A DNA stretch of 16,827 nt from an uncultured Alphaproteobacteria bacterium. GTDB taxonomy: Bacteria; Pseudomonadota; Alphaproteobacteria; Rs-D84. The stretch lies in assembly GCA_944392815.1 (NCBI GenBank), contig CALXXY010000011.1, positions 1 through 16,827 of the forward strand, read 5' to 3'. The notes beneath the pieces were generated by a model. That model had not been told where the DNA came from. It did no database searches and saw nothing but the letters and a program-made list of their open reading frames with translations. Of the stretch, positions 1-16,753 are shown piece after piece; the first letter of the stretch is position 1, and every line of letters starts with the position of its first letter. A program made the translations under genes and the position numbers.

Positions 1-112
1 CTCGTACACGCCGGCCGATGTTTGTGCCATGCAGTGCGCGTCCACCTGTGCGTCCGCCGTCCGGAACTCTGCGGCCTTTCGGTCTGCGATGTTCGGTTCA
101 CTTTCTGACTAA
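1..112 (+). CDS. 3' end of a truncated gene; Cys-rich C-terminus ...SYTPADVCAMQCASTCASAVRNSAAFRSAMFGSLSD*
   Basis: The frame starting at nt 2 is open to TAA at 110-112 and has a regular CAxxCAxxCA motif. Its stop abuts the next gene. It is absent from the ORF track because the start lies outside the window. Confidence 0.7.
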   Translation, partial: SYTPADVCAMQCASTCASAVRNSAAFRSAMFGSLSD

Positions 113-123
113 TGGGGGCGACG

Positions 124-402
124 ATGAAACGAATCATTTTTGTGATATTGGCAATTGCGCCGGTGTGCGCAATTGCCGCCGAACCGTCCACTTCATGCCC
201 GTCGGGCTATACTGCGGTGGTCGAGGAATATATGGATATCGCCAGCAGTTCATGCCCATCGGGCCATACGTCCGCCGGCACAGCGACAAGTTGTATCGCG
301 TCCAACCCCGGCGGGTCATGTATTATGTACGCCCCGGTGGGTGTATCATATACAGACAGCACCGGTACGTATGAATTTGAACAGGCGTGTGCCATGGAAT
401 AA
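124..402 (+). CDS. small secreted cysteine-rich protein (two SCPSG[YH]T repeats)
   Basis: MKRIIFVILAIAPVCAIAA is a classic Sec signal peptide, with a GGGGG SD-like run upstream of ATG124. An alternative ATG at 112 overlaps the upstream stop (TAATG). Five Cys in the mature part. Confidence 0.8.
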   Translation: MKRIIFVILAIAPVCAIAAEPSTSCPSGYTAVVEEYMDIASSSCPSGHTSAGTATSCIASNPGGSCIMYAPVGVSYTDSTGTYEFEQACAME

Positions 403-545
403 ACCACCCCGCCCTAGCCACCCACGCGACACGTCGCGCGGGGTCCGGTGTTGGGGCACCCCTCCGTAGAGGGGAACTTTGCCCCGCGACAGAACGAATA
501 CCAAGTTCCCCTCTACGGAGGGGTGGCGCGAAGCGCCGGGGTGGT
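403..545. repeat. REP/MITE-like inverted pair of GC-rich palindromic units
   Basis: Perfect 23-bp inverted repeat CACCCCTCCGTAGAGGGGAACTT (457-479) / AAGTTCCCCTCTACGGAGGGGTG (503-525). Outer IR ACCACCCCG (403-411) / CGGGGTGGT (537-545). Internal hairpins GGCGC-GAA-GCGCC and CGCGAC-AC-GTCGCG. Confidence 0.75.
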
Positions 546-577
546 CAGAGAGCAAAAAAAACACCCTTACTCCCCAT

Positions 578-607
578 TGTCATCGCGAGCACAGCGTGGC
601 GATCCAG
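578..607 (+). repeat. REP/RPE-like palindromic unit TGTCATCGCGAGCACAGCGTGGCGATCCAG
   Basis: Resembles the GTCAT(T/C)GCGAG...GC(A/G)ATC family of alphaproteobacterial palindromic repeats. Recognised from memory, not searched. Confidence 0.45.
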
Positions 608-650
608 TAAATTAAAAAAGTACTGCGGGCATATCGCCCGCAGACATTAT

Positions 651-680
651 CTACACTCTATACTCTTCACTCTTCACTCT
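651..680. repeat. short tandem heptamer repeat (CTACACT CTATACT CTTCACT CTTCACT CT)
   Basis: Four imperfect 7-nt copies read directly from the sequence. Confidence 0.6.
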
Positions 681-709
681 ATTATTCCCGCGCACACGCG
701 GGAATAATA
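680..709. repeat. perfect 13-bp hairpin TATTATTCCCGCG-CACA-CGCGGGAATAATA (ATTCCC...GGGAAT REP-like)
   Basis: Exact inverted repeat read from the sequence. Confidence 0.6.
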
Positions 710-738
710 AAAAACGGGGCGATGCCCCGTTTTTTATT
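706..738. terminator. bidirectional intrinsic terminator downstream of rplI
   Basis: AAAAAACGGGGC-GAT-GCCCCGTTTTTT, overlapping the rplI stop codon. Confidence 0.85.
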
Positions 739-1324
739 CTTCAACTGGTTTTTCCTCGGATTTTTCTTCTGACTTTTCTGTCTCGGCCACTGGGGCTTCG
801 GCGACAGGTTCTTCTTCGTCAACCTTTTTGGTGCCGAATGTCAGAACTTTGCCCGCAACCAACGCGTCAATTTCGTCCTGAGTTTGTGCGACATAGATTT
901 TAACCGGCACAATCACATCAGGGTGCAACGCGATTTTTGTATCAAACACACCAACTGATTTAATTGGCGCGCCCAACAAAACCTGGGCTGATTCAACGGC
1001 AACATTGGCGACTTCCTTTAACATGCGCGCAACATCGCGTGTGGACACAGACCCATACAATTGGCCCGTATCACCGGCCTGGCGAATCATGTACAGTTTC
1101 GCGTTCTTTACCGCATCAACATTGGATTCAGCAGATTTACGTGCCGCTTCCTGGCGTGCCTGTAATTCGGCCTTTTTGGCCTCGAACAAAGCGACGTTTT
1201 CGCGGGACCAGCGCATGGCTTTGCCCAACGGCAACAAATAATTGCGCGCGAAACCGGTCTTAACCTCTACTGTATCGCCGATATTACCCAGTTTGGTAAT
1301 TTTTTCCGTTAAAATAACTTTCAT
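734..1324 (-). CDS. rplI: 50S ribosomal protein L9
   Basis: MKVIL...LGNIGDTVEVKTGFARNYLLPLGKA and GQLYGSVSTRD motifs; acidic C-terminal tail typical of alphaproteobacterial L9; synteny with rpsR/rpsF. Confidence 0.99.
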   Translation of the reverse strand: MKVILTEKITKLGNIGDTVEVKTGFARNYLLPLGKAMRWSRENVALFEAKKAELQARQEAARKSAESNVDAVKNAKLYMIRQAGDTGQLYGSVSTRDVARMLKEVANVAVESAQVLLGAPIKSVGVFDTKIALHPDVIVPVKIYVAQTQDEIDALVAGKVLTFGTKKVDEEEPVAEAPVAETEKSEEKSEEKPVEE

Positions 1325-1384
1325 TTTATCTGTCCTTTATTTCAAGTTAGGGTTAACCACCCAAATATTCCCAGTAATTCAATA

Positions 1385-1612
1385 TTACCCCAGGTTATTG
1401 CGAACAAATGGCAACAACCCCAAATGACGTGCGCGTTTAATGGCGGTTGCCAATTGACGCTGATCTTTCTGGGATACACCGCTGATACGCGACGGAACGA
1501 TTTTGCCACGTTCAGTGATATAATGTGACAAAGTTTTAATATCTTTGTAATCAATAACCTTGCCCTTTAATGGGTTAGATTTTTTACGATAAATTGCTGC
1601 ACGAACTGCCAT
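1385..1612 (-). CDS. rpsR: 30S ribosomal protein S18 (Cys-free form)
   Basis: [22 protein letters not shown]...[19 protein letters not shown] motif; 1-nt overlap with the rpsF stop. Confidence 0.99.
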
Positions 1613-1950
1613 TATTCTACCTCCTCGGTATTCTTTTTCATCATGATTGACGGCGTGGTTGACAATGCAGAAACACGAACATTCAGGAAACGAATGACGT
1701 CTTCGTCAATACGTGCGCGACGTTCGAATTCAGCCAATTTGTCACCCGGCAATTCAACATTCAGCATGACATAATGTGCCTTGCGATTTTTACGAATGAT
1801 ATACGCCAAATTTTTCAAACCCCAGAATTCTGTGGATTTAACATCACCACCCAATTCTTTGATGATATCTGCGTATTTTGCCGCTTTTTCTTTGACCTGC
1901 GGTTCGGTCAAATCCTGGCGGAAAACCAGGACGCTTTCATAGTAAGCCAT
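1612..1950 (-). CDS. rpsF: 30S ribosomal protein S6
   Basis: MAYYESV..FRQDL and [18 protein letters not shown] motifs; AAGGAA SD upstream. Confidence 0.99.
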
Positions 1951-1958
1951 ATTATATT

Positions 1959-2003
1959 TTCCTTTGGTTTATACAGCCGACGACACCACGTCATCAGCAG
2001 GAA
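1959..2003 (-). promoter_or_regulatory. putative S6:S18 autoregulatory leader of the rpsF operon
   Basis: The minus strand reads UUCCU-GCUGAUGAC-GUGGU-GUCGUCGGC-UGUAUAAA-CCA-AAGGAA. UUCCU can pair with the SD AGGAA, a 9-bp inner hairpin forms, and a CCR motif lies just before the SD, matching the known S6:S18 leader architecture. Confidence 0.6.
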
Positions 2004-2011
2004 TCCCACAC

Positions 2012-2039
2012 ATTATGCAGAAAATTCCAATAAAATCAA
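2012..2039 (-). promoter_or_regulatory. sigma70-like promoter for rpsF-rpsR-rplI
   Basis: TTGATT-16 nt-CATAAT on the minus strand just upstream of the leader. Confidence 0.5.
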
Positions 2040-2075
2040 GTAAAAATATAAATGTACTTTTTATTACAATCCCTA

Positions 2076-2105
2076 TTGACTTAAATCTGGAATTTTTACT
2101 AATAT
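2076..2105 (+). promoter_or_regulatory. sigma70-like promoter for the MotA/MotB-like pair
   Basis: TTGACT-18 nt-TAATAT in an AT-rich divergent intergenic region. Confidence 0.4.
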
Positions 2106-2137
2106 CATTATAAAGATATATAAAAGAAGAGAGATTT

Positions 2138-2887
2138 ATGACACATCAATTTCACCGTGCATTAAATCGTATGGCGTTTTTCACCGCTTTGTTGGTTGCG
2201 GGATTGATTTTGTTTTATGACGCATTTCTGCGTGTGGCATCGGCAAATATTTTTCTGAATGGCATTATTATCGGCACAACGATATTCGGCATTGGGTTAT
2301 GCTTTGTGGAAATGTTCAAATTATTGCCGGAATATAAATGGGCACGCGCATATTTTGCGGGCAAAAAAAATGCCCCCCTGCCCCCGCGTCTGTTGCGTCC
2401 AATTGCGTTGATATTGCGCGCACGCCCGGTACGCATATCGGCCACCACATTGAACGGCATGCTGGACATGATTTTAACCCGATTCGAAGATTCCCGTGAA
2501 TCCACCCGCTATATAACAAACACATTGGTATTTTTGGGATTACTGGGCACATTTTGGGGATTGATTTTAACGGTCGGCGGATTTGCGGATTTAATTGGCA
2601 ATTTGAATTTTGCCGATGAATCAGTTCTGCAAAACATGCAGGCCGGCCTGACACGCCCGCTGTCTGGCATGGCAACGGCATTCACCAGTTCGCTTATGGG
2701 TCTGGCGGGCAGTTTGGCCGTCGGATTCCTGGGGCTGCAGGTTCAATTGGCACAAAACGCCATTTTTCGCGAGGTCGAAGATTACCTGTCCGCCCACACC
2801 AGCGTCGCAACAACAGACACAGTTTCAACTGTATTGCCCCAGATAAATGAAAATCTGACCGCAATCAGACAAACATTTACCGAATAA
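2138..2887 (+). CDS. MotA/TolQ/ExbB proton-channel family membrane protein
   Basis: Two N-terminal hydrophobic segments plus the family motifs LVFLGLLGTFWGL and GMATAFTSSLMGLAGS. Confidence 0.85.
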   Translation: MTHQFHRALNRMAFFTALLVAGLILFYDAFLRVASANIFLNGIIIGTTIFGIGLCFVEMFKLLPEYKWARAYFAGKKNAPLPPRLLRPIALILRARPVRISATTLNGMLDMILTRFEDSRESTRYITNTLVFLGLLGTFWGLILTVGGFADLIGNLNFADESVLQNMQAGLTRPLSGMATAFTSSLMGLAGSLAVGFLGLQVQLAQNAIFREVEDYLSAHTSVATTDTVSTVLPQINENLTAIRQTFTE

Positions 2888-2911
2888 ACCAAACGAAAGA
2901 GAGAGAAAACC

Positions 2912-4024
2912 ATGTTAAACATCAGATTTCGGGAAAAAACAAATACCTGGCCGGCGTTCGTGGATTTATTTTCGAACCTGGTGATTATACTTATCTTTTT
3001 ACTGATAGTATTTGTGTTTTTATGGACAACCACCAGCGTATTTAACCGCGACAGCGGCGCAAAAACTGTGGCCGATTTGAAAAAAACAAACGCCGAACAG
3101 GCCGAACGCATTGTTCAAATGACCGCAGACGAAGAAGAAGCCAAACGCCTGTTGGTGCTGGCGCGCGCCGAATTGGAAAATCTGTCCGCAAACAATGACG
3201 CGCTGTCAAACGAATTGACTCAGGTCGACGCCAGCATGGACGAATTAATCGCCGATTACGAGGCACGCGTTGCCGAACTGCAGGCCCAGGGCACTGATTT
3301 ACAGGCCCAGGTTGCGACCCTGACCACACAACTGAACCAGGCAACACTGGATAAACAGCGCACAGCCGAACTGGAACAGGAACGTCGTGCATTACAGGAA
3401 CAAATGGCCGCCCAACGCGCGGATTTGGCCGAACAATTGAATAAATTACAGGCCGCCCTGGACGCCGCCGAAGAAGCGTCCCATCAAAAGGATATTCAAT
3501 ACGTTGAAATGTCCACCCGCCTGAACAAGGCTTTGGCTGACAAAGTTGCTGAATTAAACGATGTTGCGCAATATCAATCTGTGTTTTACAAAGCGATAAA
3601 AGACGCACTGGGCGACGACAGTTTTATCGAAACTCAGGGCGACAGATTCATTATTTCCAGCGACATTTTATTCGGCAGTGGTTCATATACCATTTCGCCC
3701 GAGGGTAAAAATCAACTGCGTCTGATTGCGAATGTCATTAAAAATCTGGAAAACAAAATCCCAACCAATATCGATTGGATTATTCGCGTCGATGGCCACA
3801 CAGATCGCAAACAGGTCATTGCCGGCACACGTGGGTATTCCAACAATATGGAACTGTCATTATTGCGTGCAAACGCGGTTGTAAATGAATTGGTGGCCGA
3901 TGGCGTATCGCGTCGTCGCCTGGTCCCCAGTGGCTTTGGCGATTTGCACCCGGTCGTACTGGGCACAGACGCACAAAGTTTGCAACAAAACCGCCGCATA
4001 GAATTACAATTAACCAACAGATAA
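2912..4024 (+). CDS. MotB/OmpA-family peptidoglycan-binding protein with long coiled-coil stalk
   Basis: WPAFVDL transmembrane segment carrying the MotB-type Asp; heptad-rich middle region; C-terminal OmpA domain (SDILFGSGS, IRVDGHTD, NMELSLLRA, NRRIEL). Confidence 0.9.
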   Translation: MLNIRFREKTNTWPAFVDLFSNLVIILIFLLIVFVFLWTTTSVFNRDSGAKTVADLKKTNAEQAERIVQMTADEEEAKRLLVLARAELENLSANNDALSNELTQVDASMDELIADYEARVAELQAQGTDLQAQVATLTTQLNQATLDKQRTAELEQERRALQEQMAAQRADLAEQLNKLQAALDAAEEASHQKDIQYVEMSTRLNKALADKVAELNDVAQYQSVFYKAIKDALGDDSFIETQGDRFIISSDILFGSGSYTISPEGKNQLRLIANVIKNLENKIPTNIDWIIRVDGHTDRKQVIAGTRGYSNNMELSLLRANAVVNELVADGVSRRRLVPSGFGDLHPVVLGTDAQSLQQNRRIELQLTNR

Positions 4025-4031
4025 AAACCAA

Positions 4032-4055
4032 AAATCCCCACACATGTGGGGATTT
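4032..4055 (+). terminator. hairpin/terminator after the OmpA-domain gene
   Basis: AAATCCCCACA-CA-TGTGGGGATTT. Confidence 0.6.
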
Positions 4056-4064
4056 CATATATAA

Positions 4065-4093
4065 TAAAAAATCCGCCGTTGGCGGATTTTTTA
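4065..4093. terminator. bidirectional terminator between convergent genes
   Basis: AAAAAATCCGCC-GTT-GGCGGATTTTTT. Confidence 0.85.
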
Positions 4094-4098
4094 CACGA

Positions 4099-4476
4099 TT
4101 ATAATTTTTCGACATAATCGACGTCGATTTCTGTTTTGAACAGGCCGGCGTCAACCTCGCCATACAGTTTAACTTTATCAGATGGGGTCACTGTCTGGCC
4201 GCGCCAATCGTCATCATCAATTTCGACGGTCACCGAATCAGTTGCATCTTCGAACAAATATTTTTCACCGCCCATACGCTGTACAATATGTCCCTGGACA
4301 ATCACAGGCACATCATCGCGCATTTCTTTGACCTGTTTAACGGTGGAAATAACCTCTTCCCCGCCGACGAAACCACCACGAGGCATCTGTCCCTGTGGCA
4401 TATCTGATTTAAAACCAGCCAATGCCGCGCCCGATGTCATGGCAACCACAGCCGCCATAGTGAAAATTTTTTTCAT
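4099..4476 (-). CDS. YgiW/YdeI (bacterial OB-fold, BOF) periplasmic protein
   Basis: Signal peptide, GGFxG motif, DD..V...G.I......EKYLF.D....V.VEIDDDDW.G..VTP.DKV...GEVD pattern; AGGGG SD. Confidence 0.9.
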   Translation of the reverse strand: MKKIFTMAAVVAMTSGAALAGFKSDMPQGQMPRGGFVGGEEVISTVKQVKEMRDDVPVIVQGHIVQRMGGEKYLFEDATDSVTVEIDDDDWRGQTVTPSDKVKLYGEVDAGLFKTEIDVDYVEKL

Positions 4477-4551
4477 TTATCACCCCTTTTGTTCATTTAC
4501 GTATAATAAATATCTCATTTATTTTTCAAAATGTCCAGGGGAATTTATTAC

Positions 4552-4580
4552 AAAAAATCCCGCATAACGCGGGATTTTTT
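4552..4580 (-). terminator. intrinsic terminator of the Cys-rich protein operon
   Basis: AAAAAATCCCGC-ATAAC-GCGGGATTTTTT directly after the stop at 4582. Confidence 0.85.
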
Positions 4581-4581
4581 A

Positions 4582-7086
4582 TTACATTACAATATCTTCA
4601 CAAACCTCTTCGGACGTTTCAGTTGTACAACTTGTATTTCTGTTGTTGTGGAACCAACTGCTGCTGCCCGTTGTTTTGCAATTCTGGGTGACAGTTTGTG
4701 TACAGATATGACATGTTCTGGTATCGCGGCTGAATATAGCACGCACAGTTTTGGTCATACCGCCACCATTCAAACTGGACCCGCCCAGATAGCCGCTGTT
4801 TGTAAACGTCACGCCATCTGCCTGCAGTACCCCAGCGCCGCCCTTGGCCAAATCTTCGGTCGTCAAACCAGAACCAACGTCATAACTGATTGAATATGGC
4901 GGGGTCAACGGTGTTGACGCTTCTACATTGCCGCCGCCCGAACCGCCGTTCTCAGCGATTTTCTGACACATATACTGTGCCAAATCGGCGGACGCATCAC
5001 GTGTGGCCTCGGCAATGGCTGTATTTAATTTATTGTTATAATTATCCTGTGCCTGGCGCAGTGCCGATGCCGCAATCTGCATTTTTACCTGATTCAACAG
5101 GTTCGGGAAACGCCCACTGGTCATGTCGCCTTCGTTCCCGGTGATTTGCGACAAATCACGCCCATTAATGCAGTACTGAATTTCCGGATCACTTTCGATT
5201 AAATCGATGGTGCGGTTAATAGTCCCGGCGATATTGTTCAATTCTTCTTCTATCGCGGAAATAATACCCTCGGAATTTTCAACATTGGCATTACGTTCAC
5301 GTATTTTGGTTATATAATCGCCAACGCCAATATCACCCGGCCCCAGTTTAACTGTGCCGCCTTCGCCATCACCGACAGTTTCGCCGTCCATATCGCCCAT
5401 GACGATACTGCCGAACGAAATCATACCAGTCACACGATATGTTGTGCCGTCTTTTTGGCTGCGCAAAGAACCGGTCCCAATCGTATCATCAGACGCGAAA
5501 CGATTACAATCAGTTGTACTGCCGCAAATTTCAGCCATTTTTTGGTCGACCAAATTCTGGCATTGATCCATCATAGAATTGTCGATATTCAAATACAATC
5601 CCATCAGCATATCGTCCAAATCGTCCATAGAAAATCCTGGATTATTCGCCTTGCACACGACCAGCGAATCAATCGGACAGATATCGTGGATGTAATCGTA
5701 ATCCATACCGATACAGTTTTCGAAATTCGGCCCACAGCGTGTATCCGCGGTAAAGCAATCTTTGACCTCTTGGGTACAGGCATCGACACGCATTGCCGCC
5801 AATTTATCTTCTACATATCCCCAAATCAGTGGTTCCATACGTTCGCACGGGTCAATTTCAACCTTGCAGAAACTGCGCGCCATTTCCGGCCGTGACAAAC
5901 ATGCGTCCATTGTTGCGACGCCTTTGCCCGCGATATCGTCGCGACACGCGGTTTGAATGCACTCGGAAATGCTGGTCAAACATGACTGACGGAATTTAGA
6001 TTCCGCCTGGCTTTCCGCGACCTTTATCGTCGGTGCAGATTCACGCAGGAAATTCGGCCACACCTGGTCACGCACGGCCACGCATTGATCCAAAACATTT
6101 TCGCAAATTGGTCGTTTGGCACTTAACATTTCCATGGTCGACGCAGTTATATCATACGTATCAACCGTATCCACAGTTGTGCCGGCCGTGCTGACCGCGG
6201 CATTATTTTGCATATTTTCCATGGCAATGGTTGCAACGCAGTTTTCCCAGTTTTCGCCACACGCATCCGCTGTCTGCATGCACTTTTTAAATTCAACCAT
6301 ACATTGCCCCAGGTCGTATTTATTCGCGCTTTCGAAACTTTCCTGCAACGCATTACGCACCGCAGATTCCGCCGACGCCAATTCATTTTCGGCCTTGGCA
6401 CGTTGCTGGGCCAACGAATTTTTATACCCCAAACAATCAGACGTTATTTGCCGCGAATACAATTGTTGCAAAAACGCAATATCCCCAGAACATGATTCAG
6501 GCACCTGGTTCACGCACAACTGATTGGCGGCATCATATAATTCCCGCCCCACCATATCGGCAATATTGGCACCCGTCGACGTTCCCCACAAATCATCATC
6601 TGAATCATCAATCGACGTATTCCACAGTGACAACAAATCGGCACGCTTTTTTTCTTTTTCTTCGGCCTCGCTTATCTCGCCCTCGTCCAGGATATTGCCA
6701 TCTTCGTCATAACGACGTTCCCCGGTAAAAATAATATCGGCATCAGCACCCGCCTTGACACGTTCGACTTCTTCGGTGTTCAGGCGATTGGCCTCGTCCA
6801 AAATGTCCTGGATAGCGGCTAATTCGTCGTTATATCCAACTATATCATCGCTGCAATTGCATGCGCCACCACTGGCGTTATCAGTTATACAAAACTGATC
6901 CATACAGCCAAAATACGCGTCATAGCACGCCTGGTCATACAGACCGGTCGCCTCTATCTTGGTTCGAACGGTTGTGCCCTGTTGTATGGCAGATTGTGTC
7001 CCCGACCGGGCCACAGCCAACGCCGCGCCCCCCGCGCACAACGCAACCACAGAAATCACAGCACACGATACAGTTTTTATTTTCAT
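4582..7086 (-). CDS. large secreted cysteine-rich helical protein, paralog A (834 aa), function unknown
   Basis: Long ORF with signal peptide, AGAGAGAG SD, 36 Cys in the mature chain, CxDAYxxCMDQFC motif, ends CEDIVM. Confidence 0.9.
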   Translation of the reverse strand: MKIKTVSCAVISVVALCAGGAALAVARSGTQSAIQQGTTVRTKIEATGLYDQACYDAYFGCMDQFCITDNASGGACNCSDDIVGYNDELAAIQDILDEANRLNTEEVERVKAGADADIIFTGERRYDEDGNILDEGEISEAEEKEKKRADLLSLWNTSIDDSDDDLWGTSTGANIADMVGRELYDAANQLCVNQVPESCSGDIAFLQQLYSRQITSDCLGYKNSLAQQRAKAENELASAESAVRNALQESFESANKYDLGQCMVEFKKCMQTADACGENWENCVATIAMENMQNNAAVSTAGTTVDTVDTYDITASTMEMLSAKRPICENVLDQCVAVRDQVWPNFLRESAPTIKVAESQAESKFRQSCLTSISECIQTACRDDIAGKGVATMDACLSRPEMARSFCKVEIDPCERMEPLIWGYVEDKLAAMRVDACTQEVKDCFTADTRCGPNFENCIGMDYDYIHDICPIDSLVVCKANNPGFSMDDLDDMLMGLYLNIDNSMMDQCQNLVDQKMAEICGSTTDCNRFASDDTIGTGSLRSQKDGTTYRVTGMISFGSIVMGDMDGETVGDGEGGTVKLGPGDIGVGDYITKIRERNANVENSEGIISAIEEELNNIAGTINRTIDLIESDPEIQYCINGRDLSQITGNEGDMTSGRFPNLLNQVKMQIAASALRQAQDNYNNKLNTAIAEATRDASADLAQYMCQKIAENGGSGGGNVEASTPLTPPYSISYDVGSGLTTEDLAKGGAGVLQADGVTFTNSGYLGGSSLNGGGMTKTVRAIFSRDTRTCHICTQTVTQNCKTTGSSSWFHNNRNTSCTTETSEEVCEDIVM

Positions 7087-7117
7087 GACTTCTCTCTCTG
7101 ACCTGTATGACTATGCG

Positions 7118-9325
7118 TCACATATTAATATCTTCGCAACTTTCAATTTCCTGACAGAACTCTTGTTCACCGCCAGCACTGCGTCCCGCGAAATATCCAC
7201 CGACACCGCCAACAACTGCACCGATTGCGGTTCCCCACCCGGGCGATACCATCGTACCGGCCGAAGCCCCCGCCGCCAATCCACCGGCCGCGGCCTGCAG
7301 ACCCGCTGCGCCTTTGGACTGACCACCTGTTTCGCATACCTGCTGCATACGGCACACATGGCAATTACGCAACGCAGGTTCCCACGATACACTGCGGATA
7401 TAACTGTAATTTTTGCTGGATTCGTCCGGTGTTTCAACCTTGTACGTATTATAGCAGTTTTGTTCGGCTGCCTCTAAATCCTGTTGGCGTGACAATTCGG
7501 CAATTTTCGTTTCCAATTCACGCATAGAACGATTTTCCGCATTAATTTGCGCAATCATTTTCGCACTGTTAAACACGCTGTCACCCAAACTGTTGCGGTC
7601 AGACGGTTTTTGACTGTCCTGACACGCGGCCACAGTTTTATCCTGCTCGAACTGTTCGAAAAATTCGTCCACGGCGGCCTCGGTATTGGCGCGAACACTT
7701 TCACGCAACGTCGCCAATTCTTCCTGGGTTTCTGGAACCTCGACCAGTGACGCAATCTGGGTATCTGTCGGCAAACAGGACATATCCGTTCCGCACACAG
7801 CCCCCAATTGTTCGCTGAAATAATTCAAACAGCCCTGCAACATTTGATAATCCATCTGCAACATAGCGGCCTGGACAATAATATCAAATTGCGTTTCATT
7901 TTTGCATGACGGGAACATATCCTGGGGACACATTTCGGCAATTTCCAGCGCACTTTTGCCCACGCATTCAGGCGCAGTGAAATTTTCGCCACATCTGTCA
8001 CGCAAACATGCGTCCACATCGTTTTGACAGAACTGCGTCCGCAAATATCCCAATTTGTCATTTACAACAGTTTTAATCCCCGGAATCATTTCTTCGCATT
8101 CGTCAATAACCGGGCAAATTCCCGCTGCGACATTAACATCAGTCAAACACGCAGAATTCGTTTCTGTGGAACAGCTGTCCTCCAGACACAATTGAATTCG
8201 CGCCAAACATGTTCCACGCGCATTACGATCTGCATACTTTGCGGCATCGGCCAAAATGCTTACGGCTTCGTCCTGCCAATCCTGTAATACGTATTCACGC
8301 ACAGCCATACACTGATCCAAAACATTTTCGCATGCATTGGCACGACGCTGCAGCAAATCCGCATCCAAACAGTTTTCAAAATTCACACCACAACCGCCCT
8401 TGTCCGCGATACAGGACCGATACGCCAACAAACATTCACCACGGTTATATTTGTTTGTCGTATCCAGCATTTCCAAACGCGCCTGGCGAACCGCGGCCTC
8501 GGCCGTGCGCTTGTTGGATTCAGCAATACGTTTTTGGTCATTCAAATATGATTCAAATGTTTTACAATCCTGGACAATCATGCGCGAATACAGCATTTCT
8601 TCCATTTCGGCATCATCGCCACACGCATCCAATCTGCTGGCGCAATATTCAGACGCCATCGCATACAAATTGTCACCAATATCATAATCAGTACCCAAAC
8701 TGACATCGTCATCGGTACCACTGCTTATCCAGTCGGCAAAATTTATCCCCGACACACGGGAACTTTTTTGTGCGGCCTCGCTTTCACCGAACACCAAACG
8801 TGCCTGGGCACCCATTTGTTCACGTTCGACACCCTCGGTATACAGTAAATCCGCCTCTTCCTGAATTTCTTGAATTTCCTGAATCAAAGATTTCGATTGA
8901 TTTATATTTGATGAACATGCGCAACGACTGCCCTCGGATTCGTCCAGCAAACAAAATTCGTCCATACACGCACGATACGCATCACGACACGATTCACTGT
9001 TCGCCACAGGCGTTGCACTTACCGTTGGGGTGGTATTGGTCGCACCGCCGCTGACCGATGGGGTTGTGTTCGTTGAACCCGTTGTTGTATTTGTTGTTGT
9101 GGTATTTGTGACGGCACCAACACTGTCCGACAGCGTCGGCATAAACGTCCCGGCCGTTGTTGTACCGGTATTTGATAAATCAACCGACATGTTTGGCGCA
9201 CGTGCCCCCGCCTGGGCCATGCGGCTGACCCCCACGCGCACCGCCGCAGAATCCGCGCGTGTCGCGGCATTTGCAATCCCAGGCAACACACATAACAATG
9301 TGAAAACAGGTAATAATTTCATCAT
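7118..9325 (-). CDS. large secreted cysteine-rich helical protein, paralog B, with C-terminal glycine zipper
   Basis: Start most likely MMKLLPVFTLLCVLPGIANA (9325 or 9322) after GGGGTGGGA. Thr-rich linker, CRDAYRACMDEFC, 36 Cys collinear with paralog A, ends CEDINM. Confidence 0.9.
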   Translation of the reverse strand: MMKLLPVFTLLCVLPGIANAATRADSAAVRVGVSRMAQAGARAPNMSVDLSNTGTTTAGTFMPTLSDSVGAVTNTTTTNTTTGSTNTTPSVSGGATNTTPTVSATPVANSESCRDAYRACMDEFCLLDESEGSRCACSSNINQSKSLIQEIQEIQEEADLLYTEGVEREQMGAQARLVFGESEAAQKSSRVSGINFADWISSGTDDDVSLGTDYDIGDNLYAMASEYCASRLDACGDDAEMEEMLYSRMIVQDCKTFESYLNDQKRIAESNKRTAEAAVRQARLEMLDTTNKYNRGECLLAYRSCIADKGGCGVNFENCLDADLLQRRANACENVLDQCMAVREYVLQDWQDEAVSILADAAKYADRNARGTCLARIQLCLEDSCSTETNSACLTDVNVAAGICPVIDECEEMIPGIKTVVNDKLGYLRTQFCQNDVDACLRDRCGENFTAPECVGKSALEIAEMCPQDMFPSCKNETQFDIIVQAAMLQMDYQMLQGCLNYFSEQLGAVCGTDMSCLPTDTQIASLVEVPETQEELATLRESVRANTEAAVDEFFEQFEQDKTVAACQDSQKPSDRNSLGDSVFNSAKMIAQINAENRSMRELETKIAELSRQQDLEAAEQNCYNTYKVETPDESSKNYSYIRSVSWEPALRNCHVCRMQQVCETGGQSKGAAGLQAAAGGLAAGASAGTMVSPGWGTAIGAVVGGVGGYFAGRSAGGEQEFCQEIESCEDINM

Positions 9326-9351
9326 TCCCACCCCATACATAATTTATAGTA

Positions 9352-9380
9352 ATTTTATCAAAAGCACCGCCCATGTGCAA
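9352..9380 (-). promoter_or_regulatory. sigma70 promoter for the paralog B-A operon
   Basis: TTGCAC-17 nt-TAAAAT with an extended -10 TG on the minus strand. Confidence 0.6.
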
Positions 9381-9395
9381 GCACATAAAAACAAC

Positions 9396-9424
9396 TTGCA
9401 TTTATTTTTGCAAAATAATATCAT
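9396..9424 (+). promoter_or_regulatory. sigma70 promoter for infA
   Basis: TTGCAT-17 nt-TATCAT, back-to-back with the paralog B promoter. Confidence 0.55.
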
Positions 9425-9464
9425 ATATGCCGAAAAAAATTTCAGTAAATACATAGGATAACTT

Positions 9465-9716
9465 ATGGCAAAAGATGATGTAATTGTATTCAACGGCACG
9501 GTAGAGGATAAATTACCCAACACCATGTTCCGCGTACGTTTGGAAAACGGGCACGAAATTTTGGCAACCGTTTGCGGCAAAATGCGCAAGGCACGCATCT
9601 GGGTCAACGTTGGTGAACACGTTCGTGTTGAAATGACCCCATACGATTTGGACAAGGGCCGCATAACATTTGTCGAACGTAATCGTCCCGCATCGGACAA
9701 CACTGAAAACAAATAA
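9465..9716 (+). CDS. infA: translation initiation factor IF-1
   Basis: MAKDDVI...G.V...[18 protein letters not shown]...GKMRK.RI....[15 protein letters not shown]; AGGA SD. Confidence 0.99.
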
Positions 9717-9723
9717 AACAGAC

Positions 9724-9748
9724 ATGACCGCAAAATGCGGTCATTTTT
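9724..9748 (+). terminator. infA terminator
   Basis: ATGACCGCA-AAA-TGCGGTCAT followed by a T run. Confidence 0.75.
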
Positions 9749-9827
9749 GTTGCCTGTGTGAATAATTATTACTTTTCAATAAAATATATTTTTGTTATCA
9801 TTTATATACATATTATACACAACGGGA

Positions 9828-12305
9828 ATGAAAAGGTTTTTATTCTTTGTCATGGCGTGTTGCATCAGCATCGCGAATGCTGGTGCTGCTGTTCGTGGAA
9901 CAAACTCGGTTGACCGCGCCCAATCCGCCGCGACATCGAACACAAATTCCCAAACGGTAATCGCGCGCACAACAACGCGCACACCCGCGGCCGTATCCAC
10001 AACACGCACAGCCACCGCCCGTGGCGGCGCAACAAATACGGTATCCCGCGCGTCATCAACCGCACGCGGCGCAACCACGTCCCAAACGGTCGCCCGCACC
10101 GCAACCAATCCACGCAGCGCGAACGCCACCCAAACCACCGCCCGCAGCGCGCGCACCAACACCGTCGTACGCAGCGCCACCCCCCAGCAATCACGCGGCA
10201 CCTCAACCGCGGCCCGCAGCGCACGCGCCGCACGCGCAACAACTGTGGCGCCGTCCAGTGTCACGAACACATTCGGCACAGAATACAATGTTTGTCGTGA
10301 CGCATATTTCACATGCATGGATCAATTCTGTGCGACCGCCAACGACAGTTATCGCCGTTGCGTCTGTTCGTCCAGATTGACAGATATCCAGGAACGCGAA
10401 CGCGCCCTGTCCCAGGCGGCCGGACAATTACAGGATTTTCACGATTTAAACATAGAAGTTATTCCCAAAACCGCGGCCGAGGTTAACGCCATGCTGTCCG
10501 CCAGCGAAGGCGAACTGGCCATTACCGAGGACGATTCGGAATCATCGCAACAACTGGCCGGCATACGCGAGGTTTTAAACACATCTAAATCCCAGGCACT
10601 GTCAACACTGGGCACATTGGACATTGCGGGCGACATAAATCAAATTTGGGCAACAACGGATTTGGCGTCTGGCCAAAACATTGCGAATTTAACCGGTGAA
10701 TCATTATACAACGCTGTACACGCCCAATGCGTGGATTTGGTCAGCGAACAATGCGCCAACCAATCAACACTGAACATGGTTGTATCCGCATACGGCATGT
10801 ACATAGAAAACGATTGTTCTGCATTGCTGAACGCATTGGACACCCAATTGGTCCAGGCCAACAGCACAATTCGCGACACAGAACGCGAAATGAACATGGC
10901 GCGCCTGGAAAATTATAACGCCCATAATTCCACCGCCATCAACGAATGTATCGCCCAGGTTCGCACAGACATCACCGCCGACACGGCATGTGGTGCGGAT
11001 TATGTTCATTGCCTGGACATAACAGGGCGTTATTTAAATCGCGACACAGGCGAACCGATTTATTCCCCAGAATTCTATGAATTGGAACATCAAATATCAT
11101 TGGACGGCGACGTATTAACCAACGCAACCAACCGTTTAATTGTCGCCGAATTAAACAGCAAACGTATATATGCCGAACGCGGTCTGGAAACATGCCGCGA
11201 CATCGCGGACGAGGTTTGGGACGAATTCGTCCGCCAGGCCATCGTCGAAATATACCAGGGTCAACAGGAAAAAATCCGCACGGTTAAAAACGAATGCCTG
11301 GACGTGGTGAACGCATGTTATGACGAACAAAGCGAATCGTTAAAGGACTTTAGTAATATCAAAGAAGAATTATTATTGGGTTCCCGTCTGGAATTATCCG
11401 AAGAATTATGCCAGGAAAAATTATACGCCTGCAGCAACCTGTACGGCGACCCGGACGGCGACGGATTGGATTTATTGCTGTCCGCTATGCGTGATATCAC
11501 AGACCAAAAAATCGCCGCCAATTGCCAGGAATTGTTGCAGGCCTTTGCCCAGGATACCTGCACCGTCCCCAGCAACGACAGTTTGCATGCATATCCATAC
11601 GGTTGCCGTGTATACGCACCGGGCGACGCAATATATGCGTCCAAACCATATTGTAATCAATTGCAATGGTCCAACACAGGCGGTGGCCTGGGTGGCGATG
11701 ATGACGACCCCACCCCCACGGGTCCCGGATATTCATGCCCACCATATAAAAAATACATATCATGCACCACTGGCTATTTCATGGCAACAAAAAATGACGA
11801 AGGCACATGGAAATATAACGGCACCCCAACCGTCGGCAATTCATGCCAACCATGTTTACTGCATTATACATGCCCCGGTGGCACAGACAAACCCATTCCA
11901 CCCGTTGGCACGGAAGAAAACGGTGAAATGGACAAAGATTGCGGTGTGGACTATGCCGGCAGTTTGTATCAGCGCATAGTCAGATACGCAACCCAGGTAT
12001 GCACCCGCCCATCTGAATACGACCAGATTACCGCGGGCACCATGAACATTCCAGCCAACGTATTACAGGACGTCAACATTGTCATGGATTCGATCAAGGT
12101 TGACATGTCCACTGCGCTGTCGGCCGAATGTGAACGATTGGGCGGCATATGGGTTGACACCCAATGGGTGGACGAAGATGAAGATCCAGGTGCCCACGAC
12201 GTCACAGGCGACAAACAATACAAATATTTCTATGACGAAACGGGGTCAAATACCAAATGGGGATATTGTGCGGAAATAACGGATACTTCCACATCGTCGC
12301 CATAG
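9828..12305 (+). CDS. large secreted cysteine-rich protein, paralog C, with basic Arg/Thr/Ala-rich N-terminal tail
   Basis: Start reassigned to ATG9828 (MKRFLFFVMACCISIANA signal peptide). CRDAYFTCMDQFC...RCVCSS motif shared with paralogs A/B; about 29 Cys in the mature chain. Confidence 0.9.
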   Translation: MKRFLFFVMACCISIANAGAAVRGTNSVDRAQSAATSNTNSQTVIARTTTRTPAAVSTTRTATARGGATNTVSRASSTARGATTSQTVARTATNPRSANATQTTARSARTNTVVRSATPQQSRGTSTAARSARAARATTVAPSSVTNTFGTEYNVCRDAYFTCMDQFCATANDSYRRCVCSSRLTDIQERERALSQAAGQLQDFHDLNIEVIPKTAAEVNAMLSASEGELAITEDDSESSQQLAGIREVLNTSKSQALSTLGTLDIAGDINQIWATTDLASGQNIANLTGESLYNAVHAQCVDLVSEQCANQSTLNMVVSAYGMYIENDCSALLNALDTQLVQANSTIRDTEREMNMARLENYNAHNSTAINECIAQVRTDITADTACGADYVHCLDITGRYLNRDTGEPIYSPEFYELEHQISLDGDVLTNATNRLIVAELNSKRIYAERGLETCRDIADEVWDEFVRQAIVEIYQGQQEKIRTVKNECLDVVNACYDEQSESLKDFSNIKEELLLGSRLELSEELCQEKLYACSNLYGDPDGDGLDLLLSAMRDITDQKIAANCQELLQAFAQDTCTVPSNDSLHAYPYGCRVYAPGDAIYASKPYCNQLQWSNTGGGLGGDDDDPTPTGPGYSCPPYKKYISCTTGYFMATKNDEGTWKYNGTPTVGNSCQPCLLHYTCPGGTDKPIPPVGTEENGEMDKDCGVDYAGSLYQRIVRYATQVCTRPSEYDQITAGTMNIPANVLQDVNIVMDSIKVDMSTALSAECERLGGIWVDTQWVDEDEDPGAHDVTGDKQYKYFYDETGSNTKWGYCAEITDTSTSSP

Positions 12306-12316
12306 TAAAACTGTGT

Positions 12317-12345
12317 TTGCCTTGGTATCAAAAATTTGTTAAAAT
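12317..12345 (+). promoter_or_regulatory. sigma70 promoter for the downstream Cys-rich gene
   Basis: TTGCCT-17 nt-TAAAAT with an extended -10 TG. Confidence 0.55.
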
Positions 12346-12366
12346 TTGATTAAGCAAGAGAGAAAA

Positions 12367-13068
12367 ATGAAAAAAGCATTCATTGTATCGTTTTTATGTT
12401 TATCGTTCGCGCCCGCGGTGGCGGCGTCAATTCCATGGTGGGAACGCCCAACAGTTTGCAAATTGGATCCAACAAAATGCTATACATCTATGGGCATTGG
12501 TTATGACACAGAACAATGGGACGCTGATTCCGGTTGTTGGGGCATGAAAATAATTTGTCCCGACGCATTGACCGCCGGCGGCGATGACCCTGTGGCAATG
12601 GGGCTGCGTGATATTGAACGCGGCACCGGAATCAAATCGGATTTTGACACAAACGTTTTAAATGGCGATTGTTTCGGCATGCGCAAAACAATGGATAACG
12701 GCGCAATGGTAATGTATGGCGACGAATACGTACGCGTATGGTGCGACGCAGGCATATTGGACGGCGACGTTGAATACACTGAATTCGGCGCGTATACATC
12801 ACCGGAAAATCAGCCCACCTGTTCTGAATTGGCGGACATGGGATTGGTCGCAACATTAAACGGCAAATGCTATGGCAAATATTATGACACCGCAAAATAT
12901 CACATTCAGTGCGATGGCAATGATATTTTGCCCAGCCGCCTGGTTTTATTAAACGGTGCTGATTATACGACATCATCAAACGCACCGGCCGATAAAAACG
13001 CCGCAAACAAATTGTTTGACGCGATGGAATCAAAATCCGCCGAACAGCGTAATATTTATTTTGATTAA
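12367..13068 (+). CDS. secreted cysteine-rich hypothetical protein
   Basis: Start reassigned to ATG12367 (MKKAFIVSFLCLSFAPAVAA signal peptide) after AGAGAGA. Nine mature Cys; repeated C[WFY]G motif. Confidence 0.85.
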   Translation: MKKAFIVSFLCLSFAPAVAASIPWWERPTVCKLDPTKCYTSMGIGYDTEQWDADSGCWGMKIICPDALTAGGDDPVAMGLRDIERGTGIKSDFDTNVLNGDCFGMRKTMDNGAMVMYGDEYVRVWCDAGILDGDVEYTEFGAYTSPENQPTCSELADMGLVATLNGKCYGKYYDTAKYHIQCDGNDILPSRLVLLNGADYTTSSNAPADKNAANKLFDAMESKSAEQRNIYFD

Positions 13069-13090
13069 AAAATAAATTTTTTATCAAATA

Positions 13091-13116
13091 AAAAATCCCC
13101 CATTCGGGGGATTTTT
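13091..13116. terminator. bidirectional terminator
   Basis: AAAAATCCCCC-ATTC-GGGGGATTTTT between convergent genes. Confidence 0.85.
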
Positions 13117-13132
13117 CTTTACATGCCGATTA

Positions 13133-16100
13133 TCAGAAATCATATCTGAATTTCAACATACCTGTCTGGGACGTGTAATCTTCGTGTAAATCCAATTCAT
13201 AGTTTACAGAAAATTCCCAGCCCTCGTACATGGCGGTCAACCCGATACCGAATTCACCACCGAACCGCGACAGGCGATCTGCGTCAATCACGTATGACAC
13301 ATTACCCGGTGCGACAACAGTTGACACCACCGCATCAGACAGGAAATCATACGTTGCCGCAGCACTGATTTCCGGACGGAATTTCAAACGTGCCTGCGAT
13401 TCGATATCGAACGCATATTTCACGCCGGCAACCCCGGTCAGATAATCTGTGTCCACGGCTTTGACTGTACCGATTGCACTTTCGTGTTCGTCCTGGGTGA
13501 TGTGCAAATAACGTGCACCAACCATCGGTGTCAACCCAGACGCAAAATCATATCCAGTCATGATTTGTCCACCAAACGAATCGACATCGTATTCAGATTC
13601 CAACGCAAACGCACCATACAGATTGGATTTTTCTGTATAATTCGACATTGTGTAATTCAATGTGCCGTTCACGAACCATTGTGATGGTTTGTATTGGCCA
13701 TACACAAACAAACTGCTGGAATCGATTGTTGTATCACGCGAATTCGAATCGACATCAGTATCATTGTACGCATACCCGACACCGATTGTGTATTTACCGT
13801 TAATCAGCGCATCTGCACCAACGGAAATACCCATGGTATCACCGGTAAACTTGTCGGAATATTTCGCATGATTGTACAGTCCCTGGGCCCAGATACCATA
13901 ATCCATATTGGCACTGTCACCACCGCTGCGGCCAACGGCACCACCCGCCATACGACCCGCCGCCAGTGATAACACCTGGTTCTGGACAGACGACGCAACA
14001 GATTGCGCCACAGGTGTATCGTCCGGGTTCAGTTTGGCTATTTCCTGTTCGACATACCCAACATTCCCCGCGGCCAACTCCTGTTGCGAACGCAGTGAAA
14101 TCGCATTCAGTACCGCATTGTTGGAATTTGCCAACCCCGCAACACTTGCAGCGCCCTGGGTGGACAGCCCTGTGTTTTTGGCAATTTCATCAACAGATTT
14201 TGTTGTCACAATGAATTCGCCGGCCTCGGTACCGCCCGTGACATTATAAATATCACCAAAATCAACCGTGGTGAAATCAACATCATCTGTGCCAAAGATA
14301 TTGTACGTACCAACGCCGCCGATGTTCAATTTCAACGTGCTGTCCGACACAGAAATGCTGTCCGCGTCAATTTTGCCATAATTGTCGGAATTCAACAACG
14401 ACGCAACCAAAGTGCTGCCATCAAACGTGACAGAATTCTGGACGATGGTCGACGTACCAATATCCAGCACGGCACCACCTGATACAGTCAATTTGCCTGT
14501 GTCACCAGTAATACCGCCGGTCAGTTTGGTTGTACCACCATTAATGGTCACAGTTCCCAAATTATGAATGTCGTTGGCCTGGCCACCGGCATAGTTATTT
14601 GAAAACACATTATCCCCAGACATGGTGATTACGCCCGATTTTTCATTATAAATGGCGCCACCAAATTCACCAGCAACATTGGCCTCGAATGTGGTGTCGT
14701 TTAACTTAATCTCTGCAAAATCATTTGCCTGATTACCAACATTCGCAATTGCACCACCCTGCTTGCCGGCCTGATTGCCAGTAAATTCGGATTTATCAAT
14801 CAAACCAATTTTTCCGGCATTGGTAATTGCACCACCCTGTTGGTTAACATTTTCTGTGATCGCCATATTATTCACGAACCGCACATTGGTCATGGATTCA
14901 ACCACGCTGCCCAGCGACCCGTTCCAAAACGCGCCACCATTTCCAGAAACATTGCCTTCGAACAACACGGTGTCCAATTTAGTAATCGTATTTTGATTAC
15001 GCACAGCACCACCGTTGCCACCGATATTATTCATAAACGATGTATTACGTATGGTTCCGATGGTTCCGCCATCACCCTGACTGGTATTATTGATAGCGCC
15101 ACCATTATAACCCTCGTTTTTCACGAACAATGTATGCGCAATTTCATCAATATTGCCCTTGTTATAAATGGCACCGCCACCGCCAGATGATCCTGTGGCT
15201 TTGTTATCGCCAAATGTCATTTGCGATGTACCATTATTGAATACCAATTCGCCTTCGTTCCAAATGGCACCAGCAAAACCCGCCTCGTTCATGGTAAACG
15301 ATGTATCGGCCCCCAAAGTGGTTGTCCCGGCGTTATACAATGCACCACCCCAGGCATTTCCAGTTTCAGACACCACTTTATTACCTTTGAACGCGCCATT
15401 TACAGTCAACGTACCTTCGTTATAAATTGCACCACCCAGTGCGTCCGTTGCATTTGTCGTCACCGAGTTTGTTTCAAAATCGCCATTAACCGTCACCGTG
15501 GCATCCTTGTCGCCGTCAACCTTGATAGAAATCGCACCACCGGTTGACGCTTTGCCAACAGCTTGTTCTGTCAGGGCCGTCACCGTATTCGATTTGAATC
15601 CGCCATTAATGGTCCCAATTTCCACGGGTGTTTTTGTGCCACCTTTGACATAAATGGCGCCACCATTGGCATATGCGTCACCAGTTGCCGAATTGGATTC
15701 AAAATTGCCGTTAATTGTCCCGATTTTGGTAATATCGCTTGACGCCTGGTTTTCTTCGACCCATTTGCCTTCTATATGAATCGCACCACCACCGGCCGAT
15801 ACCATTTTATCTGTATTAGCATACTCGCGTGATTCAACCTTTTCGTCCAACACAGCAGAAACATAATTGCCAATAAAATCGCCATTGATTTCATCAATCT
15901 GGCTGCCAGAATATGCGGCTATGGCACCACCATTTGCCGTTGCTTTACCGGCTATATTCGATGTATTTTCCACACCATTGTTTGTAAAGTCAGCGTTTAT
16001 CGTACCAATTAACCCCAGGTTATAAATCGCTGCGCCCTGGCCATATACGTCATTTTCTTTGTTCGCGTCATTATCACTTTTTGTTATAACAATTTTATTG

Positions 16101-16312: not shown

Positions 16313-16408
16313 ACTTTCTCCTTTGTTTAAGTATACAAAACCCTTCTGTTCTTTTACGGTATCACAGTTGGTAATACTTGCAACAAAAATTAATTTGAAC
16401 AATTTCCC

Positions 16409-16665
16409 AAAAACGATACCGCCAATCCAAATGGAAATGGCGGTCGGGTGGGTTCAAAAAATCACATAACAGTATGACCCCGCCAGCTTTCGGGCCAGGC
16501 CCTGTTTTATCACTGGCGGCCCCCCGACCATACGGCGGGGAATCACACAATAAAAGGCGCACGTGCGCCACAACATTATTGTGTGCGGATTTTGATACGC
16601 CACATCGCGTACCACTGTTATGCGGGATTTTTGACGTCCCCGAACCCAAATCCCTTTGGATTCAT
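16409..16665 (-). ncRNA. putative structured non-coding RNA / leader of unknown family
   Basis: Own promoter (16671-16699), extensive nested complementarity, and a terminal hairpin ACCGCCA...TGGCGGT followed by a T run. No convincing ORF. Confidence 0.6.
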
Positions 16666-16670
16666 GACAA

Positions 16671-16699
16671 ATTATACGCGTCCCACCAACAAAAGGCAA
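16671..16699 (-). promoter_or_regulatory. near-consensus sigma70 promoter driving the putative ncRNA
   Basis: TTGCCT-17 nt-TATAAT on the minus strand. Confidence 0.7.
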
Positions 16700-16713
16700 A
16701 TAAAAAAAATAGA

Positions 16714-16742: not shown

Positions 16743-16753
16743 AGCCCGCACAT

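Follow-up and report, generated by a model that had tools for sequence, protein, structure and literature searches.

Does a short glycine- and alanine-rich insert near the C-terminus of a large, exported, cysteine-rich protein attach that protein to a membrane? The question is raised by a 16,827-nucleotide stretch of DNA (GenBank assembly GCA_944392815.1, contig CALXXY010000011.1, positions 1 to 16,827; hereafter, the window) whose source is Candidatus Enterousia, a gut alphaproteobacterium of the order Rs-D84. Gene B (7118..9340, minus strand) encodes a 740-residue exported cysteine-rich protein with a 43-residue insert in its C-terminal module, and gene A (4582..7086, minus strand) encodes an 834-residue paralog without the insert. 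A previous examination of the window, made without database searches (hereafter, the sequence-only reading), had taken the insert for a glycine zipper and B for a membrane-inserting subunit akin to pore formers and bacteriocins. Our analysis identifies the insert as a conserved segment that is predicted to fold into a two-helix hairpin, is flanked by cysteines behaving as disulfide partners and matches, in register, the hairpins of SlyB-like lipoproteins. Judging from these sequence comparisons and structural models, we consider it somewhat likely that the insert anchors B to a membrane as a SlyB-like hairpin; membrane insertion, the target membrane, oligomerisation and an envelope role of B are what we infer from them.

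Conservation and predicted structure of the B insert

The insert spans residues 677-719 of B (7184..7312, minus strand), reads GAAGLQAAAGGLAAGASAGTMVSPGWGTAIGAVVGGVGGYFAG and contains 14 glycines, 12 alanines and zero D/E/K/R. It sits between the third and fourth cysteines of the C-terminal module and is missing from A; its location and sequence, together with the paralogy of A and B, were confirmed by translation and BLASTP to be as first described. Open reading frames (ORFs) in other frames overlap this Gly/Ala-rich DNA (6959-7477 and 7225-7527 on the plus strand, 7111-7437 and 7167-7364 on the minus strand) and were set aside because homology backs the frame of B.

The sequence-only reading had named conservation of the insert among orthologs as a check on its proposal, and that conservation proved strong. 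Of 42 related loci, 41 encode the hairpin and the remaining one is truncated by a contig end, and no gap columns interrupt the insert among 27 orthologs. Mean majority identity in these orthologs is 0.79 for the insert, 0.76 for B as a whole and 0.84 for its core, and the ratio of nonsynonymous to synonymous polymorphism (pN/pS) is 0.26 for the insert, 0.20 for the core and 0.79 for the N-terminal linker, ratios that are comparative only because synonymous sites are near saturation. As judged from the coding sequences, the insert is under purifying selection. A profile of the last 101 residues detects the module with its hairpin in 171 of the 201 genomes sampled from the order, nearly always with one match per genome: in 169 of 171 genomes of family f1, in the single genome of family f4, which retains the hairpin, the five cysteines and an A-like neighbour, and in none of the 28 genomes of families f2, f3, f5 and f6.

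Within the insert it is the glycines that are best kept. Across a set of 44 homologs that includes distant representatives, mean conservation is 0.81 for glycines vs 0.55 for alanines, and G691, G695, G703, I706, G707, G711 and G719 are each kept in 95-100% of sequences. The first helix of the hairpin (residues 676-698; 7247..7315, minus strand) carries the zipper G687-x3-G691-x3-G695, with G691 and G695 each kept in 98% and G687 in 89% of the homologs; the turn, S-P-G followed by W702 (7235..7246, minus strand), keeps P700 in 84%, W702 in 93% and the adjoining G703 in 100%, and is one residue shorter in nine distant homologs; and the second helix (residues 703-722; 7175..7234, minus strand) carries G703-x3-G707-x3-G711, followed by G714, G715 and G719, with I706, G707 and G719 each kept in 98% and G711 in 95%. 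B therefore has the two GxxxGxxxG strips, joined by a short turn, by which the glycine-zipper family is recognised. The description of the insert as uncharged holds for this B and for 13 of the 44 homologs, and fails for 28 others, which have one charged residue each; position 682, a glutamine here, is K or R in 28 of 44. Nearly all homologs lack D/E/K/R throughout the 37-residue run 683-719, two having a lysine at 696 or 697, and the Kyte-Doolittle mean is ~0.9-1.1 for each helix. A reading of the insert as a functionless flexible linker was rejected because its length is strictly conserved and its glycines are near-invariant.

The full-length B protein was modelled with AlphaFold2 from a 44-row alignment, with a mean predicted local distance difference test score (pLDDT) of 74 and a predicted template modelling score of 0.40. 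The body of the protein (118-632) is helical in this model and is followed by two strands (645-654 and 659-672), two helices (676-698 and 702-722) and a third strand (726-739). On the minus strand, strand 1 corresponds to 7379..7408; strand 2 to 7325..7366, with C660, C663 and C669, whose pattern was traced in the 44 homologs and whose codons were checked; and strand 3 to 7124..7165, with C729 and C735, the latter leading into the terminal CEDINM. Mean pLDDT by block is ~83-88 at residues 640-669, 83 for the last ten residues and 51-68 in the hairpin. Structure prediction had been suggested as a check on the helical hairpin with its SPGW turn, and the model agrees with that proposal, placing an SPG turn between the two helices at low helix confidence. 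Comparisons with solved and predicted structures named no relative: a Foldseek search of the full B model against the PDB returned 0 matches at E ≤ 1e-3, a profile of the module gave chance-level matches alone among PDB chains (best E 0.1), and an ESM Atlas search with residues 640-740 was uninformative (best score 0.76).

A putative cysteine clasp shared with gene A

The five-cysteine module that holds the insert ends both A and B. The two paralogs are 31% identical over 479 residues (BLASTP, E 4e-60); in that alignment RNCHVC of B pairs with RTCHIC of A and CEDINM with CEDIVM, and residues 651-673 of B match the corresponding part of A by hhalign (E 3.7e-4). All five cysteines are present in 32 of the 44 homologs, and losses affect them in pairs, C669 with C729 in 4 and C663 with C735 in 8, with loss of a single member in none (0/44); because the homologs are related, these losses may reflect few events. 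The paired losses point to two putative disulfides, C663-C735 and C669-C729, and the residue numbers of both pairs have the same sum (663 + 735 = 669 + 729), as a single antiparallel strand register requires. The loop had been described as clamped by cysteines, and the flanking residues do behave as disulfide partners. With such a clasp, both ends of the hairpin would therefore lie on the same, oxidising side. C660, itself invariant, probably pairs with one of the invariant cysteines upstream of it (C629 or C573).

The source genome (927 kb in 18 contigs, 96.8% complete) has a gene for a DsbA-like thioredoxin-fold protein (contig C4, 1591-2106); DsbB and VKOR were both looked for there without success. 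The DsbA-like gene is thus without a found re-oxidation partner, while ~ten encoded proteins hold 20-40 cysteines each.

Comparison with SlyB-type hairpins and glycine-zipper toxins

Compared by hhalign with 20 SlyB-like lipoproteins, including the source genome's own, the B module aligns over 40 columns with 84.5% probability and an E of 7e-6, residues 681-721 falling on the SlyB-like hairpin helix for helix and in register. The real score of 37.9 was reached by none of 200 shuffles of the insert columns (16.5 +/- 4.0, maximum 31.5); therefore, residue order matches, beyond composition, in a comparison that by its nature cannot separate common descent from convergence. The likeness to membrane-embedded glycine-zipper hairpins on which the sequence-only reading had built is thereby substantiated. 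Sub-threshold matches to Gly-zipper_Omp (PF13488) occur in 19 of the 27 orthologs (best E 3.7e-5) and to YMGG (PF13441) in 17. On B, PF13488 scores 16.6 bits with the whole protein and 18.3 with the module against a cut-off of 25, and PF05433 scores 10.9 against 24.2; Pfam names neither A nor B, its sole match being a weak Gly-zipper_Omp hit on residues 684-722 of B (E 0.0073), and NCBIfam has no match for either protein.

The segment resembles the two-transmembrane (2TM) domain of SlyB, YfgH, OsmB and YiaD (PF05433 Rick_17kDa_Anti, PF13488) in its length of ~40 residues, its two GxxxGxxxG helices and its short turn, and it shares with SlyB-type hairpins a modest hydrophobicity and a basic residue after the second helix. 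Unlike these small lipoproteins, however, B is a cysteine-rich, helical protein of 740 residues with its hairpin at the far C-terminus, and it has neither an L-x-[GA]-C lipobox nor a match to LPAM_1, which the source genome's SlyB-like protein does match. The turn is a tight P-G-W in B and a polar loop of 7-8 residues in the latter protein. The B hairpin is also set between two disulfide-stapled beta strands, and we know of no such clasp in SlyB-type proteins. In the literature, YfgH, SlyB, OsmB and YiaD are presented as 2TM glycine-zipper lipoproteins (preprint 10.64898/2025.12.22.696046), and SlyB is described as assembling into ring-shaped complexes that span the outer membrane (PMC13067283).

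Other proteins of the source genome carry comparable segments. The SlyB-like glycine-zipper 2TM lipoprotein is encoded on contig C3 (63240-63695), with a lipobox and a PF05433 score of 30.9-33 bits (cut-off 24.2); used as a query, it was found in 3 of 41 sampled family genomes, the source included, vs the near-universal B, the Pfam family itself not having been searched there. A 388-residue exported protein, also on contig C3 (~73.2-74.4 kb), consists of a (GT)n repeat, a glycine-zipper hairpin and a C-terminal domain with 12 cysteines. Its turn region, A-P-G-L-G-T-A-I-G, shares 7 of 13 residues with the B module (BLASTP, E 0.021), so a cysteine-rich protein unrelated to B has a hairpin of this kind in the same genome. 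Glycine-zipper-like segments are seen in further envelope proteins of the genome as well.

Glycine zippers, on which Kim et al. reportedly wrote in 2005, also bear on a second kind of protein. In its C-terminal, GxxxGxxxG-rich, uncharged segment B is like CdzC/CdzD of Caulobacter, Tse4, TelE, LXG-T2 and the class II bacteriocins (PF10439), and C-terminal glycine zippers are described as needed for membrane damage by CdzC/CdzD, Tse4, TelE, LXG-T2 and Tde1 (PMC12955049). On this analogy, B could be the subunit that inserts into the membrane in a pore-forming toxin or a weapon like a bacteriocin, its zipper oligomerising to a channel in a target or host membrane. Among the 27 orthologs, 17 have sub-threshold matches to Bacteriocin_IIc (best E 2.4e-4) and 19 to the ejection protein gp7 of P22, which would suit such a role, as would weak fold matches of the A sheet to pore formers (RCD-1, Z 6.0; OlyA/PlyB, Z 5.3), all of them below the noise level of Z 7-8. 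We nevertheless hold it to be very unlikely. The PF10439 scores of 10-15.4 bits lie far below the cut-off of 27.1, and the profile match goes to SlyB-like hairpins. A rigid stapled sheet holds both ends of the hairpin in a protein of ~700 residues, whereas the cited zipper toxins are small or have a free C-terminal zipper. The genomic setting differs too: B is neither patchy nor polymorphic, its synteny being fixed, its sequence under purifying selection and its presence documented in 169 of 171 family genomes; its neighbours are paralogs and housekeeping genes, and the ORFs listed between B and A or after them include no small gene of the immunity type; and it has a Sec signal only, Pfam finding no LXG, type VI secretion, type I secretion/repeats-in-toxin or double-glycine leader feature. 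For a slowly evolving core gene that is single-copy and syntenic and has neither a delivery domain nor an immunity-like neighbour, the analogy with pore formers and bacteriocins drawn by the sequence-only reading is not supported.

Proposed membrane attachment of B

If the insert is a SlyB-like anchor, B would be exported via Sec and its 36 mature cysteines oxidised in the periplasm, for which a DsbA-like gene is available. The last ~100 residues would fold into a three-stranded antiparallel sheet with strands 2 and 3 stapled by C663-C735 and C669-C729, and the hairpin would project from the tip of the stapled pair as two helices of ~18-22 residues joined by the P-G-W turn. Entering the membrane from the periplasmic side, it would anchor the large, helical, disulfide-rich body of B, and its small-residue faces would permit tight helix packing and possibly side-by-side self-association. 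A, with the same stapled sheet and a short aromatic-tipped loop, would at most touch the membrane surface.

The distribution of charge bears on which membrane this might be. Basic residues (K676, K/R682 and R720) are located at the hairpin base, and the turn has none. The positive-inside rule is well established, and a basic base, an uncharged P-G-W turn and ends tied on the oxidising side fit periplasmic entry better than a hairpin of the inner membrane whose turn faces the cytoplasm; we lean to the outer membrane. An inner-membrane stop-transfer hairpin, inserted via SecYEG with its turn in the cytoplasm and B facing the periplasm, would account for the lack of any outer-membrane targeting signal in B; each helix has the length needed to cross a bilayer (18-22 residues), and the hydrophobic variants seen in other family members would probably be held by the translocon. 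We find this arrangement hard to credit, given that a turn of 3-4 residues without positive charge and basic residues in the periplasm are contrary to the positive-inside rule. A crude hydrophobicity sum of ~+4 to +6 over the best 19-residue window matches, moreover, the range of SlyB-like hairpins, and these have to avoid retention in the inner membrane; this is weak evidence, the sum being position-independent and positive even for signal peptides.

Segments of a related kind recur beyond B. The insert had been thought particular to B, which is correct for the A/B pair and for those paralogs of the source genome whose ends are readable, some having been cut off by the extracted loci: within this genome the hairpin lies inside a C-x2-C...CEDI-x-M module in B alone, and the paralogs other than A with readable ends have no such module. 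Across the wider family the claim does not hold, since members from other lineages carry, just before a conserved terminal motif, longer and more hydrophobic small-residue segments with a P-x-G-W turn (Kyte-Doolittle 1.4-2.0). From these C-terminal P-x-G-W hairpins, membrane attachment therefore seems to recur in the family. A member on contig C10 of the source genome (1062-residue frame) has, close to its C-terminus, two uncharged segments rich in glycine that give weak glycine-zipper matches and lie outside a module of the C-x2-C...CEDI-x-M type.

The same features can be set against the possibility that the hairpin stays outside lipid and serves as a protein-protein interface, packing on the helical body, on other copies of B or on paralogs to give a periplasmic or surface lattice. 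GxxxG faces are well known to drive helix-helix packing in soluble proteins too; the hydrophobicity of the hairpin is modest, the ~ten family members in the genome could co-assemble, and similar Gly-rich segments occur in other envelope proteins of the source genome. We rate an interface of this kind as unlikely, though deserving of consideration, for residues 683-719 are nearly always charge-free, a basic collar and a conserved turn tryptophan are more typical of lipid-embedded hairpins, the domain matched in register is a transmembrane one, and related members swap the hairpin for segments that are clearly hydrophobic.

Several observations tell against membrane anchoring and temper our preference for it. 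The hairpin is modelled with a pLDDT of only ~51-68 and its hydrophobicity is modest. Neither B nor any of the 27 orthologs attains the gathering cut-off of a Pfam glycine-zipper model, and BLASTP of the B module against the source genome's SlyB-like protein finds nothing, a composition-corrected pairwise search being too weak for Gly/Ala sequence; low-complexity sequence of this composition invites convergent or spurious likeness. The Lol route, which takes SlyB to the outer membrane, is closed to B because it has no lipobox, and no other targeting route is evident. The whole family, finally, appears to be known from genes alone.

An extension of the anchor reading can be drawn, in which many B hairpins zip into SlyB-like transmembrane rings or rows that rivet a disulfide-cross-linked lattice of A, B, the product of the neighbouring gene C and other paralogs to the outer membrane. 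The result would be a protein exoskeleton with B as the sole integral rivet and the aromatic loops of A-type proteins as peripheral contacts, functionally like the chlamydial outer membrane complex and built from an unrelated helical family. We think this improbable. Its likeness to chlamydial OmcB/OmcA and the polymorphic membrane proteins is that of a disulfide-rich set of envelope proteins, by concept only; B has no sequence or Pfam similarity to chlamydial envelope families at E ≤ 1, and the body of the B family is helical, not beta-rich as in the chlamydial complex. Enterousia is described as retaining peptidoglycan-shape genes (PMC12306168).

The loop of A and of A-like neighbours

Between the equivalent cysteines A holds 16 residues, KTTGSSSWFHNNRNTS. 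This loop (4630..4677, minus strand), between C803 and C820 and with W811-F812 at its tip, stands in place of the 59-residue loop of B. AlphaFold2 was applied to the last 250 residues of A (38 rows, mean pLDDT 61) and recovers a C-terminal sheet module at residues 771-834 (4585..4776, minus strand; strands 187-202, 207-222, 233-240 and 244-249 in fragment numbering, pLDDT 64-75), with the loop at 223-232 and a tip pLDDT <50. The WF-tipped loop pointed out by the sequence-only reading is found as such, the two aromatic residues occupying the tip of the equivalent short loop. A VIA-align search of this model against 48,161 chains gave a best Z of 6.0, under the tool's noise level of Z 7-8; the sub-noise matches were to pore formers, levivirus coat proteins and secretins and shared long antiparallel strands only. 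Prediction of a complex between the C-terminal 181 residues of A and 166 of B scored 0.14 against a mark of 0.32, which speaks neither for nor against binding.

The gene that follows B is A-like in 40 of the 42 loci, the remaining two being truncated, and all 40 neighbours have the stapled module, none the zipper. Their loops are of the S-W-F-H-N type in 23 loci, G-F-[LW]-G-I-G in 12 and others, including N-W-F-R-K, in 5; in the f4 genome the sequence is R-A-F-W-S-K. Such tips, which are hydrophobic or aromatic and in several cases adjoined by basic residues, would be compatible with contact between A-like loops and a membrane surface. The presence of three or more loop types means either that the loop changes abruptly in evolution or that the slot is occupied by more than one kind of paralog.

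Family, organism and genomic context

B has the features that mark its family, namely a signal peptide, a low-complexity linker, a head motif of the form C-x6-C-x4-C and a helical body along which conserved cysteines follow in a fixed order. It has 37 cysteines, 36 once the signal peptide is removed, and 29 are retained in at least 42 of the 44 sequences. Both A and B start with a signal peptide. That of B (residues 1-26; 9263..9340, minus strand), read from the sequence and modelled as a helix at 10-23, is of the signal peptidase I type without a lipobox, with a likely cleavage site at ...GIANA|A; the ortholog consensus begins at MKL, and the true start may be a few codons further in. A Thr/Ser/Asn-rich, low-complexity linker follows (residues 28-115; 8996..9259, minus strand), fast-evolving (majority identity 0.37, pN/pS 0.79) and with a pLDDT <50, and then the cysteine-rich, mostly helical body common to A (residues 116-632; 7445..8995, minus strand), supported by BLASTP against A, by the AlphaFold2 helices and by cysteines kept in 42-44 of 44 sequences. 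Right after the signal peptide, B orthologs conserve a motif, R..RVGV.R.S.A..R.P (residues ~27-41; window ~9220-9260, minus strand), in which R35 and G37 are invariant among the 27 orthologs; the adjoining linker is not conserved, and an AA-x-R start is also seen in other paralogs. This motif could be a sorting or binding signal.

Homologs of B number 955 at E ≤ 1e-3, and a profile built from the 27 orthologs finds 724 cluster representatives at the same threshold in 1.84 billion proteins and ~ten members in the source genome. In the 42 related loci B is 56-89% identical to the protein studied here; the metagenome-assembled genomes concerned are named Candidatus Enterousia, uncultured Alphaproteobacteria or Rickettsiales, with one labelled Muribaculaceae. 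Enterousia, of the order Rs-D84, is characterised as comprising gut bacteria with reduced fermentative genomes (PMC12306168). No published description of the cysteine-rich family or of the clasped hairpin was found in the Enterousia/Rs-D84 literature.

B and A are separated by a 31-nucleotide spacer (7087..7117, minus strand), purine-rich just upstream of the ATG of A, and probably form one operon. Gene C (9792..12305, plus strand), divergent from B, is a third member of the cysteine-rich family, with the shared CRDAY..CMDQFC head motif and a signal peptide in its translation; it encodes ~825 residues from a likely ATG at 9828, with a long Arg/Thr/Ser/Ala-rich linker and a different C-terminus that has no C-x2-C...CEDI-x-M module. 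Between C and an autotransporter lies a gene (12346-13068, plus strand) for a 240-residue exported protein with a signal peptide, ~10 cysteines and no Pfam match. The autotransporter (13133-16402, minus strand; 1089 residues, beta-domain E 1.4e-33) has Chlamydia-PMP-type repeats; most related loci, too, have an autotransporter upstream of B. At the other end of the window, 2138-4024 on the plus strand encodes a 249-residue protein that weakly matches MotA/ExbB (E 0.0095, short of the cut-off) and, after it, a 370-residue protein with an OmpA domain; together they may be a stator-like or Tol/Pal-like envelope pair.

Conclusions

Two-helix glycine-zipper hairpins are known mainly from small outer-membrane lipoproteins, such as SlyB and YfgH, and from toxins. 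In B, a hairpin of this kind is grafted on the tip of a putatively disulfide-stapled strand pair in a large, otherwise soluble-looking protein without a lipid anchor. The proposed C663-C735/C669-C729 map and the conserved zipper glycines are directly testable. If B is indeed anchored through its hairpin, the arrangement would represent a lipoprotein-independent way of attaching periplasmic proteins to a membrane, and it would provide a first handle on an undescribed cysteine-rich family with ~ten large members in the ~0.9-Mb genome of an uncultured, widespread gut bacterium.

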